Source of the DNA: Escherichia phage T4_ev151
Sequence record: LR597660
Length of the DNA stretch: 64,000 bases
Direction: 5' to 3' (one strand)
Below the pieces are notes generated by a model that was given only the letters and a program-made list of their open reading frames with translations, ran no database searches and was not told the origin of the DNA. Made by a program: the position numbers and the translations under genes. Below, in pieces: positions 3,902 through 63,700 of the stretch. The first letter of the stretch is position 1. Each line of letters opens with the position of its first letter.

Positions 3902-3967
3902 GTTATCGAGTTGGTGCCATTATATACATCATTTTCTGAGTGTGTTTTGTGTGCTTTCAAAATGAAG

Positions 3968-3986
3968 AAAGGGGCCGAAGCCCCTT
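3968..3986 (-). terminator. stem-loop downstream of hoc
   Basis: AAAGGGGC-CGAA-GCCCCTT hairpin immediately 3' of the hoc stop on the - strand. Confidence 0.5.
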
Positions 3987-3990
3987 ATGA

Positions 3991-5697
3991 TTATGGATAG
4001 GTATAGATGATACCAGTTTCTAAAGCAGTTTTATGAATGATGTATCCATTACGCGATTCTTGGACATCAACTTCTGGATAATCTTTCATCATCTTCTGGA
4101 GAGTGTAACGATGCAAGTAGTACTTACTATCTGGATCGTCAGTTTTCCAATCTTTACCTTCTTCGGTCATTTTTTGGATTTCATCCATAACCCACCAACC
4201 GCACCAGATATAAGCCGAAGTACGATGTGGAAGAGGATGAACATAAGGCAATTCACCTTCTGGTTCTGGAGCAACTTTATCAGTTACCTGAACTTGACCT
4301 TCTGCTGTGATAGTTTTGCTATCATAATCAGTAGCAGTAACAGTTGCAGTAACTTCAATAGTTTGACTTCCAATAGATGATGTATCAACAGTGTATACAT
4401 TAGTTGACCCTTCTACTGGAGAAGAATCTTTCTTCCATGAATATTCGATTTGTGCTTCTTCTGGAGCATCCGTAACATTAGCAGTAAATGTAGCCGAAGC
4501 ATCTTGCTGAACGTTAATAGAAGGAGGAGTCAATGTAACCCGTGGATTCATTGTTTTCTTATTAACAGTCAATGATACTTCATTAGAAGTAACTTCCTTT
4601 TCATTGTAATTTTCTGCAGTTACTTGCGCTACACACTTAACTGTTTTAGCTCCAACTGTGGTAGGAGTATAGTTAAATGTAGTAGTAGTTTCTCCATCGA
4701 CCAGAGAACCGTCAACATACCACTGATACGTAGCAGACGCTCCTGGTGGCTGTGAAGCCAAGGCAGCAGTAAATTGAACTGGGGTTCCAATTACTGCTGC
4801 AGCAGGATTAGCAGGAGTTACGGCTAACGTAGTTGTCTGTGTTTTCTTATTAACTGTTAATGATACTTCATTAGAAGTAACTGTTTTTGCGTCATAATCT
4901 GTTGCTGTTACTTGGGCTACGCATTTAATTCTTTTAACCCCACTTGTAGTTGGAGTGTAATTGAACGTAGCATTAGTTTCTCCACCAACTTGTGAATCAT
5001 CTACATACCACTGATACGTAGCAGATGCTCCTAGCGGCTGCGAAGCTAAGGCAGCAGTAAATTGAACTGGGGTTCCAATTACTCCTGCTGGAGGACTATC
5101 AGGAGTTACTGCCAAAGTAGTTGTCTGCTCCTTTTTATTAACAGTCAGTGATACTTCATTAGAAGTAACGCTTAGTGCATCATAATCTGTCGCAGTTACT
5201 TGAGCTACACACTTGATTTTTTTAACTCCGCTTGTGTCAGGAGTGTAATTGAATGTAGCGTCAGTTGCTTCGTCTACAGGAGAACCGTCAACGTACCACT
5301 GATATGTGGCGTTTGCGCCAGATGGCTGCGAAGCTAAGGCAGCGGTAAATTCAATTGGAGTTCCAATCACTCCAGCATCAGGGCTACCAGGAGTTACAGC
5401 TAAAGTAGTTGTTTGTGTCTTATTTTGAACTGTGATAGTTGTACTAATTTCAGCTGTTTCAGCTTCACTGTCAGGAACTGGATTTGTTGCAACTACTTTA
5501 ATAGTTTTCTGGCCTGCAGGCCCCTTTAATACATAACTAAAAGTTGCTGACGTTTCTTCCTGTGGAGCACCGTCTACAGTCCAAGCATATGTAATAGGTC
5601 CATCTCCAGTTTGACCACTGGGTGTAGCAGTAAACTGCTGAGTCTGATCTATAACTCCAGTAGGTGTTTTAGGAGTTATATCAACTGTAAAAGTCAT
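3991..5697 (-). CDS. hoc: outer capsid decoration protein Hoc, extended variant with extra Ig-like repeats
   Basis: 568 aa; C-terminal capsid-binding tail (...YIWCGWWVMDEIQKMTEEGKDWKTDDPDSKYYLHRYTLQKMMKDYPEVDVQESRNGYIIHKTALETGIIYTYP) matches recalled T4 Hoc; preceded by repeated ~96-aa Ig-like modules; ATG with AAGGA SD. Confidence 0.85.
   Translation of the reverse strand: MTFTVDITPKTPTGVIDQTQQFTATPSGQTGDGPITYAWTVDGAPQEETSATFSYVLKGPAGQKTIKVVATNPVPDSEAETAEISTTITVQNKTQTTTLAVTPGSPDAGVIGTPIEFTAALASQPSGANATYQWYVDGSPVDEATDATFNYTPDTSGVKKIKCVAQVTATDYDALSVTSNEVSLTVNKKEQTTTLAVTPDSPPAGVIGTPVQFTAALASQPLGASATYQWYVDDSQVGGETNATFNYTPTTSGVKRIKCVAQVTATDYDAKTVTSNEVSLTVNKKTQTTTLAVTPANPAAAVIGTPVQFTAALASQPPGASATYQWYVDGSLVDGETTTTFNYTPTTVGAKTVKCVAQVTAENYNEKEVTSNEVSLTVNKKTMNPRVTLTPPSINVQQDASATFTANVTDAPEEAQIEYSWKKDSSPVEGSTNVYTVDTSSIGSQTIEVTATVTATDYDSKTITAEGQVQVTDKVAPEPEGELPYVHPLPHRTSAYIWCGWWVMDEIQKMTEEGKDWKTDDPDSKYYLHRYTLQKMMKDYPEVDVQESRNGYIIHKTALETGIIYTYP
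4558..5421. repeat. three tandem copies of a ~288-bp unit inside hoc
   Basis: Landmark string cttattaac(a/t)gt(c/t)a(a/g)tgatacttcattagaagtaac recurs at ~4558, ~4846, ~5134 (period 288 bp = 96 codons); protein shows SNEVSLTVNKK...TTLAVTP...ATYQWYVD...IKCVAQVTATDYD repeated. Confidence 0.85.
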
Positions 5698-58128: not shown

Positions 58129-58278
58129 TTACTGCATGACTGTGATAACTGTCATGATAACACGTTGAATTCCGAACGCAAGAAGACCTCCTGCTACGGC
58201 TGGAACAACGCCTAAACCCGCCAGTAAAATGCTACCAGATACTAATGCAGCGCTTGTAATACCAATGAATGGACTCAT
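58129..58278 (-). CDS. 49-aa hydrophobic micro-protein
   Basis: Hand-translated MSPFIGITSAALVSGSILLAGLGVVPAVAGGLLAFGIQRVIMTVITVMQ; ATG overlaps the gene 52 stop (ATGA); followed by the terminator. Confidence 0.45.
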   Translation of the reverse strand: MSPFIGITSAALVSGSILLAGLGVVPAVAGGLLAFGIQRVIMTVITVMQ

Positions 58279-59603
58279 TTTATTTCCTCTAAATCTTTGG
58301 TGTATTCTGTAACTACATCAGTAGTTTTCCAATATTCGTTTTCTTCTTTTTTAGCTTTAGCTTCTTCAGCAAGTTTCTTTGCTTCATCGGAAGTCATATG
58401 AAAAATATTCATTCCAACCAGTTTATCAACATAAGAAGAATACATATCGATTTTCGAAAGTTCTTCGGTCAGTTCTTTACGAGTTTTACCTTGTACAACA
58501 ATTTCACCTGAAATTACTTTCTTAATGAAATGTGCCTTGGCAAAGGCTAAACGAAAAGCTGATTCAGTTTCTTTAATTTTGTTATCAATTCGTTTTTGAA
58601 CATAAGTTTTACGAACTTCAACAAAGTCTTTAATTAAATCAACTACGTTATCGTAAACTTGTAGTTTTCCTTTCTCATTAATAACCGTAATATTCTGAGA
58701 ACGACGCTCAATCAACCCGAAGTCTTTCATAATTTTTGCATGACGTTCTTCTTCATTATCGCTCAAAGAATATTCTTTGCGGAATTTAACTTTGAATCCA
58801 AAACCGTGCTCACCGCAAGCATCATCCCATGTAATGAAGCCTTTATCTTCAAGTGGGTCTAAGATTTTACTCACGTAAGTTTCACGATCATACTTATACG
58901 GAATCTCAGTGATATGCATTTGAGTTCGTGAAGTAAACTTATATGTTCCACGAATTTCATACTGCCCATCAATTTCAACAACTTCACCACGAAATTCTGG
59001 GAATTCTACCTTCGGTTTAGTTACTTTCTTTCCTTGAAGAGCTTGCAGTACAGCTTTCCTGACAGAAGAAACACTATGAGGAAGAATGTAAGTTGCATAA
59101 CCAGTTGCAATACCGGAAACACCATTAAGAAGAACAGTAGGAATAATAGGCAAATAGAAAGCAGGCGGAATGTGTTCTTTATCTTGATGTACCGGAGCAT
59201 ATTCAGTATCTTTATATACGTTATAGAAATTTTTACTTACACGAGCAAAAATATAACGACTTGCCGCTGCTTTTTGAACGGTACGAGAACCAAAGTTTCC
59301 TTGACCATCTAACAAAGGAAAGTTATTATTCCAAGTGTTAGCCATCAAAGCTCCCGCATCTTGCGCAGAGTTTTCACCATGATGATATCCAAGGTCCGCT
59401 ACACCACCTGCAATAGAAGCGAGTTTGTGAAACTTATCTTTATTCCCTCGTGCCAAATCAAGAGCTCGAGCAATAACAAATCGTTGAACTGGCTTAAATC
59501 CATCAATCATATTTGGAATAGCACGATTTTCAACCGTGTACATAGCATAAGCCAATGCTTCATTATCAATGATACTTTTTAAATCGCGATTATTCAGTTG
59601 CAT
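58275..59603 (-). CDS. 52: DNA topoisomerase II medium subunit gp52
   Basis: 442 aa (T4 gp52 length); topoisomerase A-subunit-like N-terminal region (..PNMIDGFKPVQRF..). Confidence 0.92.
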   Translation of the reverse strand: MQLNNRDLKSIIDNEALAYAMYTVENRAIPNMIDGFKPVQRFVIARALDLARGNKDKFHKLASIAGGVADLGYHHGENSAQDAGALMANTWNNNFPLLDGQGNFGSRTVQKAAASRYIFARVSKNFYNVYKDTEYAPVHQDKEHIPPAFYLPIIPTVLLNGVSGIATGYATYILPHSVSSVRKAVLQALQGKKVTKPKVEFPEFRGEVVEIDGQYEIRGTYKFTSRTQMHITEIPYKYDRETYVSKILDPLEDKGFITWDDACGEHGFGFKVKFRKEYSLSDNEEERHAKIMKDFGLIERRSQNITVINEKGKLQVYDNVVDLIKDFVEVRKTYVQKRIDNKIKETESAFRLAFAKAHFIKKVISGEIVVQGKTRKELTEELSKIDMYSSYVDKLVGMNIFHMTSDEAKKLAEEAKAKKEENEYWKTTDVVTEYTKDLEEIK

Positions 59604-59740
59604 AAATTTACCATACTAGTGAATGTAGTGCCATAATAACATCAGAAATGAAAAGCACGACTTGAATTAATCCGAACATTACTCCATAATATAGTGCTAC
59701 CAATAAAGTAGCAAGGGCTAATGAATAGCCCAAGATTTTC

Positions 59741-59899
59741 TTAATCATTAGTAGATAACAACACAAATGTTAAATATGCACACATACCCTGGGCTAAAGC
59801 CTGCGAAAACACACTGCTAGCATCGATACAGATAGTTAAAACACATGCTACTATCCAACAAATAAATGAAATAACTCCTAATAATTTTGCAATATTCAT
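59741..59899 (-). CDS. 52-aa membrane micro-protein (T4 ac/52.1-like)
   Basis: Track starts at TTG; ATG at 59899 with GAGGAG SD; MNIAKLLGVISFICWIVACVLTICIDASSVFSQALAQGMCAYLTFVLLSTND. Confidence 0.5.
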   Translation of the reverse strand: MNIAKLLGVISFICWIVACVLTICIDASSVFSQALAQGMCAYLTFVLLSTND

Positions 59900-59909
59900 A
59901 ATATTCTCC

Positions 59910-60065
59910 TCAACTATTTTTAGAACCAATGTACGCGAATAATGATAAAATCGCTAATACGCCCTGAGCTGATGCTTGCAAAAATACTGAAGTTTCTCCA
60001 GTTATTACCGTTCCGGCGAATAAAAAGGACCAACAGAAAAAAGTTATACCATAAACAAGTTTCAT
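59910..60065 (-). CDS. 51-aa membrane micro-protein, paralogue of the preceding ORF (T4 ac-like)
   Basis: Hand-translated MKLVYGITFFCWSFLFAGTVITGETSVFLQASAQGVLAILSLFAYIGSKNS; shares the ...SVF.QA.AQG... core with the downstream ORF. Confidence 0.5.
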   Translation of the reverse strand: MKLVYGITFFCWSFLFAGTVITGETSVFLQASAQGVLAILSLFAYIGSKNS

Positions 60066-60072
60066 ATTTTCC

Positions 60073-60153
60073 TCACTGGCGTCCGAAGACGCCTTTAGTT
60101 TTAAGATTGTTACGATAGAACTGCATCACATGTTCGTTATGGAAATTACTCAT
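60073..60153 (-). CDS. stp: Stp peptide (anticodon-nuclease PrrC activator)
   Basis: Hand-translated 26 aa [26 protein letters not shown] matches recalled T4 Stp; ATG overlaps the ndd stop (TAATG). Confidence 0.85.
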
Positions 60154-60608
60154 TAATATGCCTGCAAAACAAATTTAAAGTTATCAGCCAACATACGGTT
60201 CATTTCTTCAAGTGTTTGATACTCAGAATGATGATTACGAGTAAATGCCAAAGCTAACTGACCTTTACCAAATCCTGTCGTCAGAGGTTTCATCTTAGAA
60301 GCAGGCAGATAAAACACTGTATATGGAACATTGTTATTTGCAATAGTACGCGCAAGCTGAGACCGGCGTTGACGAATATGACTTAAAACCGCACTGAATC
60401 CTTGCTTAGAACGCTGATTACCTACATAAAATCGTGCAGATACGCATGGACTACTAAATGGACCACCGAGTTTACTCACTAAAAAGTAAAATCCAGGTTT
60501 AGACAAAATGTCTTTATGCGGGGTTCCCAAAAACCATTCACCACCCTTAATTGTACCAATAACGGTAGCGCCTGCATTGTTCAGATCAGTAACAGTCATA
60601 TATTTCAT
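60153..60608 (-). CDS. ndd: nucleoid disruption protein Ndd
   Basis: Track starts at GTG 60656; ATG at 60608 gives 151 aa [52 protein letters not shown]... Confidence 0.9.
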
Positions 60609-60668
60609 ATTAATTTCCTCTAAATTATTTTCTACTCCATGGCCGCATGAATACACACGGCCATTAAA

Positions 60669-60884
60669 TTAATCGTCGCAGTCGACGCTCAATTCCCAAA
60701 ACTCTTCTACAGTATAAGTTTCAGTATCATTTTCAATACAGAAACGTTCATTACTGTTATTTGCTAAAGTAGCATTAACTGTCATTTTCTCGCTGGTGCT
60801 CTTAAGAGGTGAAATACGAATTAACTGATCACCGTTATCTAAACAAAAAATTTCACCAACTTTTACATCTTTAAAACTTTTCAT
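60669..60884 (-). CDS. hypothetical protein (ndd.1 position)
   Basis: 71 aa; ATG with GAGG SD. Confidence 0.55.
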   Translation of the reverse strand: MKSFKDVKVGEIFCLDNGDQLIRISPLKSTSEKMTVNATLANNSNERFCIENDTETYTVEEFWELSVDCDD

Positions 60885-60892
60885 AATTCACC

Positions 60893-61003
60893 TCAAGGAG
60901 TATAAAATCCAAATGCAGTTGTTGACCATCCCATCCAATATGGGAAATTTGCACCAATGTAAAACATAAGAATATAAAACCAACCACTCAGCAAATTCAT
61001 CAT
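60893..61003 (-). CDS. 36-aa hydrophobic micro-protein
   Basis: Hand-translated MMNLLSGWFYILMFYIGANFPYWMGWSTTAFGFYTP; ATG overlaps the upstream stop (ATGA). Confidence 0.4.
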   Translation of the reverse strand: MMNLLSGWFYILMFYIGANFPYWMGWSTTAFGFYTP

Positions 61004-61197
61004 TTTACACCATTCCAAATTGTTTCAACTACGGATTTTAAACCATTCTGATGAATATCCATTCCGACTACCGCCATCAAATAGATTCCAACTACAACTG
61101 AACCTAAGGCAAAAATCAGCATGAAAATGAATAAAGCCGGAAAAATATTATCGAAAAACCATTCAATAAATGTAAAAGCACTGCGTTTACGCTTCAT
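61000..61197 (-). CDS. 65-aa membrane protein
   Basis: Track starts at TTG; ATG at 61197 with GAGGAA SD; MKRKRSAFTFIEWFFDNIFPALFIFMLIFALGSVVVGIYLMAVVGMD... Confidence 0.5.
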   Translation of the reverse strand: MKRKRSAFTFIEWFFDNIFPALFIFMLIFALGSVVVGIYLMAVVGMDIHQNGLKSVVETIWNGVK

Positions 61198-61204
61198 ATT
61201 TTCC

Positions 61205-61318
61205 TCACATAAATCCAAAGTAAACGTTTAATACATCAATCATTAAAACGATTGGGAATATACTCAAAACTATTAGTATTATAACTACATTCCATATAGC
61301 TTTAACAATCTTTTTCAT
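61205..61318 (-). CDS. 37-aa membrane micro-protein
   Basis: ATG at 61318 preceded by GGAGGA; MKKIVKAIWNVVIILIVLSIFPIVLMIDVLNVYFGFM; the longer track ORF (to 61453) would run through a promoter. Confidence 0.45.
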   Translation of the reverse strand: MKKIVKAIWNVVIILIVLSIFPIVLMIDVLNVYFGFM

Positions 61319-61346
61319 TTTGTGTTCCTCCGTAGTTGATAGGGTA

Positions 61347-61376
61347 ATAGTACCACGGAGGAACAGTCTTGTAAAC
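61347..61376 (-). promoter_or_regulatory. early promoter (GTTTAC, 18 nt, TGGTACTAT) with inverted repeat reaching the downstream SD
   Basis: - strand GTTTACAAGACTGTTCCTCCGTGGTACTATTAC; 9-bp arms TTCCTCCGT (61324-61332) and ACGGAGGAA (61356-61364). Confidence 0.5.
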
Positions 61377-61383
61377 AACTTTT

Positions 61384-61482
61384 TTAAAAATATTCGTAAT
61401 AAATGTGAATACCAACTACTACCGCTGAAACCTGTGCAACCCACCATGCACACGCAATAAGTACAGAATTCAAAATTTTCAT
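61384..61482 (-). CDS. 32-aa hydrophobic micro-protein
   Basis: Hand-translated MKILNSVLIACAWWVAQVSAVVVGIHIYYEYF; GAGG SD; ATG overlaps the upstream stop (ATGA). Confidence 0.4.
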   Translation of the reverse strand: MKILNSVLIACAWWVAQVSAVVVGIHIYYEYF

Positions 61483-61565
61483 AATAACCTCATCACAAAA
61501 GTAAATGTTAAACAAATTACTGGAATACTAATTAACCAAACAAAACACCACCATAATGAACTCAT
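61479..61565 (-). CDS. 28-aa hydrophobic micro-protein
   Basis: Hand-translated MSSLWWCFVWLISIPVICLTFTFVMRLL; ATG overlaps the upstream stop (ATGA). Confidence 0.4.
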   Translation of the reverse strand: MSSLWWCFVWLISIPVICLTFTFVMRLL

Positions 61566-61825
61566 AGTTCAATCTCAACGATTTCCAAGTGTTTTTGTTT
61601 TATTGCCTTTTTAACACAATCATGGACTAAATATGACCATGAATCATTATATTCTCCATTAACTAATCGTTGGAGATCTTCACGTGATGATAAGTAAGGT
61701 TGATCTGATTCCCATTTTGATAAAAATACTGCAGTAAAAATATCTCCTTCATCTGTAGTTGAAGTCGTAAATGCAATAAATTCACCGGTAATTTTATGTT
61801 TAGCGTAATAAAATTTAAATTTCAT
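61562..61825 (-). CDS. hypothetical protein
   Basis: ATG at 61825 preceded by GGAGGAG gives ~87 aa MKFKFYYAKHKITGEFIAFTTSTTDEGDIF...; an early promoter lies just upstream. Confidence 0.55.
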   Translation of the reverse strand: MKFKFYYAKHKITGEFIAFTTSTTDEGDIFTAVFLSKWESDQPYLSSREDLQRLVNGEYNDSWSYLVHDCVKKAIKQKHLEIVEIEL

Positions 61826-61898
61826 TTTTACTCCTCCGTAGCTGATAGTTGTATAGTACCACAGTCCTTGTGGTATGTAAACCATTTTGTGAAATTTT

Positions 61899-62456
61899 TT
61901 AAATGGAAAGATACCATCCGTTGTAGTTGCTTTTTCTTACAACCTTACGAAGGTCTTCTCTATCACCGATGAACTTCGGAGTGTACTGGATGACACCTGG
62001 ATGAATTTCTTTAGTGTTGAATATAATTATACAGTCAGCGACTTGATGATTTAGAATGGGCCCTAGATTTATTCCAGAACCATATGGATACTCTCCGCTG
62101 CATCCTGTTGTTACAGAAATCCAACGTGAGTCAGTTTGGTGTGTCTTAACTTCTACACGAAGCCCACAGTATCTTGGATGTGCCAAAACATCCCATGCAT
62201 ATGTGTACGGATCATCGACATCTTCTTGACCTTTATTGACATATCCGCTTAGCCAATCTGCCACAAAAAACTCTGCGTACACAGCGATACGGCATCTTTC
62301 GATAACTTCTGCCTTATCCTGATTTGGGTTTTGTTTTAAAGAGTATCTTGCAGTATCAGCAATTTTGACCTTCATTTCACTAGTCAAGTCACTGTTCGAT
62401 AGGGTAAATGTCGGAATCTGAAATAGTCTCTGCAAACCCGGATTCGTTTTCTGCAT
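61899..62456 (-). CDS. denB: endonuclease IV (DenB)
   Basis: 185 aa (T4 DenB length); position between ndd block and rIIB; ATG verified. Confidence 0.8.
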   Translation of the reverse strand: MQKTNPGLQRLFQIPTFTLSNSDLTSEMKVKIADTARYSLKQNPNQDKAEVIERCRIAVYAEFFVADWLSGYVNKGQEDVDDPYTYAWDVLAHPRYCGLRVEVKTHQTDSRWISVTTGCSGEYPYGSGINLGPILNHQVADCIIIFNTKEIHPGVIQYTPKFIGDREDLRKVVRKSNYNGWYLSI

Positions 62457-62538
62457 TTAAACTTTCCTTTATGTCGGAATCACTGATATTCATATAAATC
62501 ATAATTTCTCTTAAAACAAAAGGGCCGAAGCCCTTATT

Positions 62539-62733
62539 TTATTTGAATTGTGCAATTCTTTTCTCTAGACATTCAGCATAAGATTTCATTGAGATGAACT
62601 GTGAAAGTAGCAGTTCTTGCTCAACTGCACTAACTGTTAGAAACTTTGCGCTTTCTAAAAATTTGCTCAGTGCATTAATTTTGAGCATTAATTGATCGTA
62701 TTCTTCTTTTACTCGTGCTTGATAACCTAACAT
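62539..62733 (-). CDS. hypothetical protein flanked by two near-identical hairpins
   Basis: 64 aa; ATG with AAGGAAA SD. Confidence 0.5.
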   Translation of the reverse strand: MLGYQARVKEEYDQLMLKINALSKFLESAKFLTVSAVEQELLLSQFISMKSYAECLEKRIAQFK

Positions 62734-62761
62734 AATTTTCCTTAGTTAAGGGCCGAAGCCC

Positions 62762-63700
62762 TTATTTAAATTGTTCAGTAACGTCTTCAACTACTTCGTA
62801 TTGGCAGGTACGCATTTTAGCATCGTTGTAATCAATCGGAATTGATACTACATCGCGAGGATGAACCTTAACTTTTACAACTCGGCTAGTTGAACTGCCA
62901 AAGTGACGAATATAAGATTTAGAACACACATGCAGACCACGAGAACAAGTTTGTGTATCATCGTCATTCACACGAGTACGTGGCATTTTAACTACTTTAC
63001 CCGGACTGTTATCAAAGGTGTTTGAGTGACAGTCAAAGTAATTGCTGCGAACTACTTTCCAAGCATAGAAGTAGCCATCTTCTGTAATTTCAATATCATT
63101 TGCTACCAAGAAATCAAAGAGTCGAGATACCGCTTTTTGGCTTGGGTTTTCCAGCAGATTTTCCAAGAACGGAAAATAAAATTCAAAGTTTTCACCTTTT
63201 TCCATCGAGTCGAGAATACGATCAACCAAACCAGATCGCAATTCAATATTTTGATAGAACAAGCTTTCACCTTCAATTCGAACATCACCGGAAATATATT
63301 TTTCAACAGCGCGACGAACATCAATTTTTTGCGCAGCTTCTTCCAGTTTATCCGCTACAAGCAGATTAAGAATTTCCTGGAAGTTTGAATGAGTATTAGG
63401 AGTTGCGTTATAAGTTACACCGTCAACAGTAATTGAAATGAATTTTTTAGATGCATTCCAAATAATGTCAGATTTAGCAACTGGAGCAATAACTGCATCG
63501 CTATTAACTTTAACTGTAATATCACCGCTAATAGTAACTTTAGAGCGTTTAGCTTCTTCAGCATTTTTCAAAACACGACGGATTGTATCAACCGATACAC
63601 CTTGCCAATCAGCCAATTCCTGTTGGGTGTAATTACCACTTGAATACAGCTTAACAATTTCAGCTTGTTCGTTTTTGGTCAGGCATTTAATATTGTACAT
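62762..63700 (-). CDS. rIIB: rapid-lysis / Rex-exclusion protein RIIB
   Basis: 312 aa (T4 rIIB length); ATG preceded by AAGGAAA; position downstream of rIIA. Confidence 0.9.
   Translation of the reverse strand: MYNIKCLTKNEQAEIVKLYSSGNYTQQELADWQGVSVDTIRRVLKNAEEAKRSKVTISGDITVKVNSDAVIAPVAKSDIIWNASKKFISITVDGVTYNATPNTHSNFQEILNLLVADKLEEAAQKIDVRRAVEKYISGDVRIEGESLFYQNIELRSGLVDRILDSMEKGENFEFYFPFLENLLENPSQKAVSRLFDFLVANDIEITEDGYFYAWKVVRSNYFDCHSNTFDNSPGKVVKMPRTRVNDDDTQTCSRGLHVCSKSYIRHFGSSTSRVVKVKVHPRDVVSIPIDYNDAKMRTCQYEVVEDVTEQFK

Follow-up and report, generated by a model that had tools for sequence, protein, structure and literature searches.

The ndd–denB early gene array of Escherichia phage T4_ev151 and its relation to the T4 ndd.1–ndd.6 cluster

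We analyzed 64,000 nucleotides of DNA from Escherichia phage T4_ev151 (sequence record LR597660; hereafter the window, with positions counted from its first letter) and, within it, an array of very small genes packed between ndd and denB on the minus strand (60,669–61,825). Judged from sequence comparison, this array is the known ndd.1–ndd.6 early cluster of a Tequatrovirus phage plus an 87-codon gene (here, orf87) that has been deleted from T4. The array is already catalogued and there is nothing new in kind about it: its open reading frames (ORFs), their hydrophobicity, and their functionally uncharacterized status are on record, and the array proteins are 94%–100% identical to sequences already deposited. 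The useful output is annotation hygiene, together with comparative evidence for coupling.

A preliminary description made from the letters alone had reported seven ORFs of 28–87 aa between ndd and denB. All seven minus-strand ORFs were found with identical coordinates, every one starting with ATG, and coding sequence takes up about 93% of the 1157 nt, with an internal promoter in the sole gap. The over-extension of some entries in the mechanical ORF list, which it had noticed for TTG starts, was also confirmed, for TTG and GTG starts. The 2.6 kb surrounding the array match 569 phage records, nearly all of them Tequatrovirus (T4-like coliphages), and the closest match to the array itself is to the Tequatrovirus phage AV119 (98.2%). 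The flanking ORFs are gp52, 52.1, ac, stp, ndd, denB, denB.1, and rIIB, with a 26-aa stp product identical to T4 Stp. In the T4 reference (NC_000866), the interval from ndd to denB carries the annotated genes ndd.1, ndd.2, ndd.2a, ndd.3, ndd.4, ndd.5, and ndd.6 (T4p269–T4p275), whose position, strand, and gene order match those of the window. The comparison with T4 that the preliminary description had proposed gave tblastn identities of 97%–100% for ndd.1, ndd.2, ndd.4, ndd.5, and ndd.6, and 98% across residues 2–65 for a 65-aa ORF, in the frame of ndd.2a.

There are also differences from T4. The 65-aa gene is intact in the window, whereas a 1-nt deletion has left two annotated fragments in the T4 reference, and the 87-aa gene is present in the window but reduced to an eight-codon remnant in T4. 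Identification as ndd.x genes thus holds for six of the ORFs; orf87, which lacks a T4 counterpart, is therefore not a member of the T4 set. Each of the seven has a full-length PHROG match (expectation value, E, 1.6e-17 to 1.8e-43); those other than orf87 match phrog_2183, 4135, 2401, 3098, 5011, and 8851 (E 1.6e-17 to 3.4e-38). An excerpt of the CRISPRi-ART table likewise gives T4 ndd.1 as phrog_2183, ndd.2 as phrog_4135, and ndd.2a as phrog_2401 (PMC11879866).

Coding signal, conservation, and gene corrections

The window was aligned with 12 Tequatrovirus genomes for a codon-position test and for the ratio of nonsynonymous to synonymous polymorphism (pN/pS). Variable sites concentrate at codon position 3. 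For ndd.1, ndd.2, the 65-aa ORF, and ndd.5, pN/pS is 0.08–0.15 in the called frame and at least 0.9 in the other two frames. By gene, pN/pS is 0.08–0.09 for ndd.5 (nine of whose 12 variable sites fall at codon position 3), 0.11–0.13 for the 65-aa ORF, 0.13–0.15 for ndd.2, and 0.03–0.11 for ndd.1. Within-genus variation is too low for this test in ndd.4 and ndd.6. The former is nearly invariant in Tequatrovirus and has homologues in Dhakavirus-type loci (61% identical; pN/pS 0.09–0.12), and the latter is 100% identical to T4 ndd.6, with homologues in Mosigvirus and Dhakavirus (40%–53% identical; pN/pS 0.16).

Overall, ndd.4, ndd.6, ndd.1, and orf87 are conserved in Mosigvirus or Dhakavirus relatives, and ndd.5 was found in Tequatrovirus loci only. 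The motifs kept across genera are specific sequences rather than generically greasy ones: ndd.6 has W..W...IP.IC..F, ndd.4 has AIWN...LSIFPI.FMID, and the 65-aa protein has NGLKSVV..IWNG.K in its C-terminal tail. Taken with the T4 identity, the purifying selection, and the listing of the products of ndd.1 to ndd.6 as unknown by Kutter et al. (PMC6071114), these results bear out the earlier view of real but functionally uncharacterized micro-genes in a host-takeover region. Tandem duplication was considered as the origin of the array and rejected, because no relationship was detected among the five hydrophobic peptides (ndd.2, the 65-aa ORF, ndd.4, ndd.5, and ndd.6): pairwise local alignments, compared with shuffles, gave no significant pair.

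Several entries in the existing record can be corrected. The 65-aa protein belongs to Pfam DUF7248 (PF23906), scoring 71.9 bits against a gathering cut-off of 27 over residues 6–63, and its relatives carry PF23906 in precomputed annotation. An exhaustive HMMER search of 1.84 billion cluster representatives returned three true relatives (one a 25-aa fragment); long matches were dismissed as hydrophobic low-complexity sequence. Nearly all relatives have the gene intact: of 494 matching phage records, 493 cover at least 80% of the query, and 490 of these are at least 95% identical. In the T4 reference, one G is missing after codon 2 (ATGAA-CGT; T4 locus 3933–4129), and it is because of this 1-nt deletion that T4 shows the fragments ndd.3 (the frameshifted N terminus) and ndd.2a (from an internal Met). 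The 65-aa gene is thus the true form of the T4 "ndd.3 + ndd.2a." In T2 there is a nonsense codon at position 33. Two classic laboratory phages, T4 and T2, are thus without a gene that about 490 relatives keep intact. Two other lesions were seen, namely a 44-nt duplication in ndd.1 of phage fFiEco06 and a frameshifted ndd.6 in one IMG/VR contig. Genes of the array can therefore be lost in culture.

The start of ndd.4 also needs attention. The annotated 42-aa form in T4 starts at an ATG that arose, in T4 alone, through a C-to-T change within the Shine–Dalgarno sequence (SD). Because ACG stands at that place in the window, ndd.4 exists there only as the conserved 37-aa form, and the conserved ATG should be taken as the start. 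Similarly, ndd.6 has been overlooked in most deposited genomes (it is annotated in GenBank in four of the 12 genomes inspected), and a spurious ORF lies over the internal promoter in several records. In the Lutter, ime09, and RB33 records, this is a 37-aa TTG ORF annotated across the internal promoter and SD (window equivalent 61,302–61,415); it is almost certainly not a gene.

Relatives of ndd.1 carry PF26909 in precomputed annotation; a PDB sequence search with ndd.1 found nothing, and an AlphaFold2 model was poor (predicted local distance difference test score, pLDDT, 47; shallow alignment) and was not used. In some larger T4-like phages (three IMG/VR contigs; match at 2201–2386), an ndd.1-like domain forms the N terminus of a protein of about 200 aa with an extra C-terminal domain.

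The remaining gene, orf87, is a full-length member of the RB69ORF270c/RB14ncORF264c family (phrog_2390, E 1.8e-43), and structure modeling suggests a soluble alpha/beta protein. Its predicted fold has no counterpart in PDB, and a PDB sequence search likewise found nothing. Family members occupy the same place in RB51, ime09, Mosigvirus, and Dhakavirus, that is, they follow denB directly, as read in the direction of transcription, and precede ndd.6. Identity to the window allele is bimodal across the phage collection. The window carries the rarer allele, shared at 95% identity or more by 113 of 673 records, whereas most records are about 55% identical (551 fall below 60%). The 55% allele occurs in RB51, PYps14T, and OES_C-1 despite nearly identical flanks. 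The slot itself is variable: the gene is deleted in T4, an unrelated 68-aa ORF stands in its place in T2 and RB33, and both ORFs are present in ime09. In phage 212 (2238–2764), two diverged genes of the orf87 family, 29% identical to each other, lie in tandem, with ndd.6 probably coupled to the second.

Promoters and translation signals

Promoter-early stem-loop (PeSL) cassettes of T4-type phages were reportedly described by Arbiol and colleagues in 2010. Comeau, Arbiol, and Krisch (PMC4122927) describe them in T4 and PST as composite early-promoter cassettes that follow the consensus TTTACW-N17-TAYWAT and finish with an SD and start codon, and propose that they mediate cassette exchange in hyperplastic regions; an exchange of the ndd.4/ndd.5 cassette between T4 and PST is attributed to them (PMC4122927, Fig. 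6A). The preliminary description had noted one internal early promoter in the array. A promoter scan recovered it (61,375–61,347; P2) and also found a second at 61,881–61,853 (P1), so that there are two, near-identical and with the same hexamers. P1 and P2 have in common a 31-nt promoter/leader motif, GTGGTACTAT-N4-CTATCARCTACGGAGGA, which occurs twice in the 64 kb with zero occurrences expected. At both promoters the element ends in an SD and start codon, in the form of CTACGGAGGA followed by ATG 6–7 nt on. In phage Lutter, a promoter is annotated at the place equivalent to P1.

SDs of the GGAGG type had been described for most of the genes. They are GGAGGA before orf87 and ndd.4, GAGG before ndd.5, GAGGA before the 65-aa ORF, and GAGGTGA before ndd.1; ndd.6 and ndd.2 have no convincing SD, and their starts lie inside ATGA overlaps. 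Several such stop/start overlaps had been claimed and three were found, at the orf87/ndd.6, ndd.6/ndd.5, and 65-aa ORF/ndd.2 junctions. In some phages the last of these is TAATG, using a second ATG at 61,000. An NTGA overlap of the ndd.6 start with the stop of the upstream ORF is present in all 13 genomes compared, from three genera, and in Dhakavirus-type loci (CLB_P2, phage 212, L020, and L026) the ndd.6 start is a weak TTG. Where orf87 is missing at this place, in T4, T2, and RB33, its last eight codons persist as a mini-ORF (MKIAEIEL, MKIVEIEL, or MKMVEIEL) that ends in ATGA into ndd.6. The eight-codon ORF of T4 is unannotated and has its own GGAG SD (T4 locus 4497–4523). The preliminary description had called the genes translationally coupled. 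Conservation of the overlaps across three genera provides comparative support for this, not a demonstration, and the sequences suggest that coupling probably occurs.

One further element, an RNA hairpin at the downstream end of the array, folds strongly, and its stem is kept in all 13 sequence variants, with changes that are G-U, A-U, or G-C compatible (Table 1). It might be a processing site, a stabilizer, or an attenuator.

Table 1. Coordinates of the array genes, promoters, and neighboring features in the window
Feature	Position	Strand	Remarks
denB	61899–62456		Flanks array
Early promoter P1	61853–61881	-	TTTACA-17-TACTAT with TG extension, PeSL type; heads array, just outside the limits given for it in the preliminary description
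orf87, 87 aa, RB69ORF270c family (phrog_2390)	61562–61825	-	First cistron of unit 1; GGAGGA SD
ndd.6, 28 aa, predicted single-pass membrane peptide	61479–61565	-	phrog_8851, E 1.6e-17; without SD of its own; ATGA overlap with orf87 stop
ndd.5, 32 aa, predicted single-pass membrane peptide	61384–61482	-	phrog_5011, E 3.6e-26; GAGG SD; ATGA overlap with ndd.6
Early promoter P2	61347–61375	-	TTTACA-17-TACTAT with TG, PeSL type; sole noncoding gap of array
ndd.4, 37 aa, predicted single-pass membrane peptide	61205–61318	-	phrog_3098, E 2.9e-21; first cistron of unit 2; GGAGGA SD
65-aa predicted membrane protein (intact ndd.3 + ndd.2a)	61000–61197	-	phrog_2401; DUF7248; GAGGA SD
ndd.2, 36 aa, uncharged, aromatic-rich	60893–61003	-	phrog_4135, E 1.7e-24; ATGA overlap with 65-aa ORF stop
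ndd.1, 71 aa, soluble acidic protein	60669–60884	-	phrog_2183, E 3.4e-38; GAGGTGA SD
Conserved RNA hairpin	60639–60664	-	Between ndd.1 and ndd; stem 9–11 bp, GGCCG...CGGCC, no U-tract
ndd	60153–60608		Flanks array

Membrane character and possible roles of the products

Hydrophobicity was measured as the Kyte–Doolittle maximum over 19 residues (KD19). Values for ndd.6 (2.33), ndd.5 (2.17), ndd.4 (3.06), and the 65-aa ORF (2.71) are all above the transmembrane (TM) threshold. The ndd.2 peptide has no charged residues and abundant Trp, Tyr, and Phe, but with a KD19 of just 1.17 it does not qualify as a canonical TM helix. Most of the ORFs had been described as strongly hydrophobic, and this is correct for four or five of the seven; the two at the ends of the array, orf87 and ndd.1 (87 and 71 aa), are soluble, with grand average of hydropathy (GRAVY) values of -0.44 and -0.49, respectively. 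To evaluate chance, the 1157-nt region was shuffled 1000 times with dinucleotides preserved, and ORFs of 25–90 aa that start with ATG and have a KD19 of at least 2.0 were counted. Four were observed, against a shuffle mean of 0.17 and a shuffle maximum of two.

From these profiles, the 28-, 32-, 37-, and 65-aa products are likely to insert into the membrane. The ndd.5 peptide has Lys2 at its N terminus and an acidic C terminus, ndd.4 has a KK..K N terminus and Asp28 on the C-terminal side, and the 65-aa protein has a KRKR N terminus, about 28 hydrophobic residues, and a conserved amphipathic tail (NGLKSVVxxIWNGxK). By the positive-inside rule, these basic N termini would place all three N-in, and ndd.6, with a single Arg near its C terminus, would be N-out.

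We consider it probable that the array comprises two early polycistronic units that give rise to accessory, envelope-directed factors. Two sigma-70-type PeSL early promoters, with the same leader and GGAGGA SD, would start the two units in the first minutes of infection: orf87-ndd.6-ndd.5 (unit 1) and ndd.4-(65-aa ndd.3/2a)-ndd.2-ndd.1 (unit 2), the latter probably continuing into ndd. Ribosomes would load on the first cistron of each unit via its strong SD, and the downstream cistrons would be reached through GAGG-type SDs or, for ndd.6 and ndd.2, by termination-reinitiation at the NTGA/TAATG overlaps. Four products (28, 32, 37, and 65 aa) would enter the host cytoplasmic membrane as single-pass peptides, ndd.2 may be an uncharged, aromatic, membrane-seeking peptide, and orf87 and ndd.1 would be small soluble proteins. 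The products might then serve the phage in an accessory role at the host envelope, dispensable in laboratory hosts and kept by natural selection, as may be the case for the neighboring membrane genes ac and 52.1. An envelope target is inferred, and the suggestion in the preliminary description that the peptides may target host membrane proteins is speculation.

Published data agree with early expression. In T4 infection, the ndd.1 to ndd.6 transcripts are classed as early, and the ndd.1 protein is detected early (PMC9697503, Table S2). Dispensability is supported by CRISPRi-ART experiments, in which knock-down of each ndd.x gene caused no fitness defect, all being scored "Not Fit" (PMC11879866), and by the lesions in the 65-aa gene of T4 and T2 and in ndd.1 of fFiEco06. 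The T4 deletion saDelta9, which runs from 52.1 through denB, halves the phage yield and abolishes the stimulation of phospholipid synthesis by T4 (PMC6071114). Searches of the literature on T4 ribosome profiling, DUF7248, PF26909, and RB69ORF270c found nothing relevant, and the phiR1-RT toxicity screen makes no mention of ndd.x genes.

Several points weigh against the accessory-factor reading. The ndd.2 to ndd.6 proteins were undetected by mass spectrometry (PMC9697503, Table S2); nondetection is expected for hydrophobic peptides of 26–42 aa, yet it is no proof of translation. Loss of the 65-aa gene in T4 and T2 shows that it is unneeded in laboratory culture, and ndd.2 falls below the standard TM threshold. 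Among proteins of known function, no homologue was found for the array products in Pfam, NCBIfam, PADLOC, or PDB (in the Pfam scan DUF7248 was the sole match, and NCBIfam and PADLOC gave nothing meaningful). Finally, mutants lacking dCTPase, EndoIV (denB), and Alc also lose the stimulation of phosphatidylglycerol (PMC6071114). This observation points away from ndd.x, and the saDelta9 phenotype is thus not mapped to the micro-genes.

The leading alternative is that the products are host-range, anti-defense, or superinfection-exclusion factors, each of which would neutralize, or escape being sensed by, a membrane-associated host or prophage system, the array forming a shuffled arsenal that is maintained by PeSL cassette exchange. 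We regard this as unlikely. The neighborhood is rich in genes for host interaction (rIIA/rIIB against RexAB, stp and PrrC, ac, and ndd), the orf87 slot is mosaic (including the 55% allele between nearly identical flanks), and the genes are dispensable on K-12 yet under purifying selection. An adaptive role for hyperplastic regions is also proposed in the PeSL papers (PMC4122927). However, there was no PADLOC or other match, the main text on the HIDEN-SEQ conditional T4 screens contains no ndd.x gene, and the hydrophobic peptides are nearly invariant within the genus, unlike typical arms-race genes, orf87 alone being diverse.

A narrower proposal, and in our judgment an improbable one, is that the polymorphic, soluble orf87 and the invariant ndd.6 form a two-part module, held at a fixed ratio by termination-reinitiation in three T-even genera. 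Such a module could have a host-specific envelope or anti-defense function, alone or with other micro-proteins, and might even be the phospholipid determinant of saDelta9.

Still less probable is that the peptides are host-shutoff toxins (type I toxin- or holin-like) that depolarize or permeabilize the inner membrane at an early stage of infection. In size, in having a single hydrophobic helix, and in being expressed early, they do recall small membrane toxins, by analogy with Hok/TisB-type peptides, but T4 requires an energized membrane during most of infection, as established T4 biology has it. The five families are unrelated and thus not one toxin type, no Pfam or NCBIfam toxin family was matched, and there is no antisense RNA or toxin RNA family (an Rfam scan of 59,500–63,000 gave no match at E ≤ 1). 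Knock-down also brings neither benefit nor cost (PMC11879866).

We give slightly less credence again to the idea that the ORFs are translated spacers, in which ribosomes shield the early polycistronic mRNA and prevent Rho-dependent polarity on ndd, stp, and ac, the peptide sequence itself being functionless. The tight packing (about 93% coding), the overlaps, and the lack of a knock-down phenotype would fit, as would the T4 remnant, if its eight codons were retained purely as a translated leader. Selection at the amino-acid level, as read from the alignments, contradicts this: pN/pS is about 0.1, and between genera, at 40%–60% identity, ndd.6, ndd.4, and the 65-aa protein retain their specific motifs. 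That the reading frames are open merely by chance in AT-rich DNA, or are annotation artifacts, is scarcely credible and is excluded by the sequence evidence: the ORFs are very short, several are absent from GenBank annotations (e.g., ndd.6), and five have no detected protein, but the shuffle test, the frame-specific synonymous bias, the conservation in three genera, and the existence of PHROG and Pfam families all stand against it.

T4 has a large set of early genes listed without a function, and the ndd.x genes are among them. If it is true that one of them hits a host membrane target, part of the remodeling of the envelope by T-even phages would be explained and a source of small peptide inhibitors of bacterial membrane proteins would be at hand; the present finding brings such knowledge of host targets no closer.

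Comparison with PeSL cassettes and small membrane proteins

The two window promoters resemble PeSL cassettes in that both fit TTTACW-N17-TAYWAT, end in an SD and start codon, and flank cassettes that differ among close relatives. The orf87 slot, where T4, T2, RB33, and ime09 show a deletion, a replacement, or a doubling, lies immediately downstream from P1. Directly upstream of the promoters, folding gave weak hairpins (-9.5 kcal/mol at P1 and -7.4 kcal/mol at P2) and no convincing stem-loop was found; the strong conserved hairpin is at another place, 60,639–60,664. In the T4 guide off-target table (PMC11879866, supplementary file 25), ndd.6 and ndd.4 appear as near-matches of the guides for imm.1 and nrdC.8, which means that further copies of these promoter/leader cassettes are present at other places in the T4 genome, in keeping with the PeSL model.

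Small hydrophobic ORFs continue past ndd, at 58,129–58,278 (49 aa, in the position of T4 motA.1), 59,608–59,748 (52.1), 59,741–59,899 (ac), and 59,910–60,065 (a paralogue of ac), and the early region from motA.1 to denB (about 3.7 kb) holds at least nine hydrophobic peptides of 28–65 aa. The ORF at 59,741–59,899 is the true ac orthologue, identical to T4 Ac but for one added residue. Between it and stp lies the diverged second ac paralogue (51 aa; z = 10.7 compared with shuffles), which T4 lacks.

Pairwise tests of ac, the ac paralogue, and 52.1 against the array peptides were all nonsignificant, indicating no sequence relationship, and none of the ndd.x genes has acridine resistance or a comparable phenotype linked to it. 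The likeness is instead one of form and place. Ac is encoded 1 kb downstream from the array in the same early region, and T4 Ac and gp52.1, like the array peptides, are 30–65 aa long, with one hydrophobic helix and a basic N terminus. The small bacterial membrane regulators AcrZ and MgrB are built in the same way, with 30–65 aa, one hydrophobic helix, and a basic N terminus.

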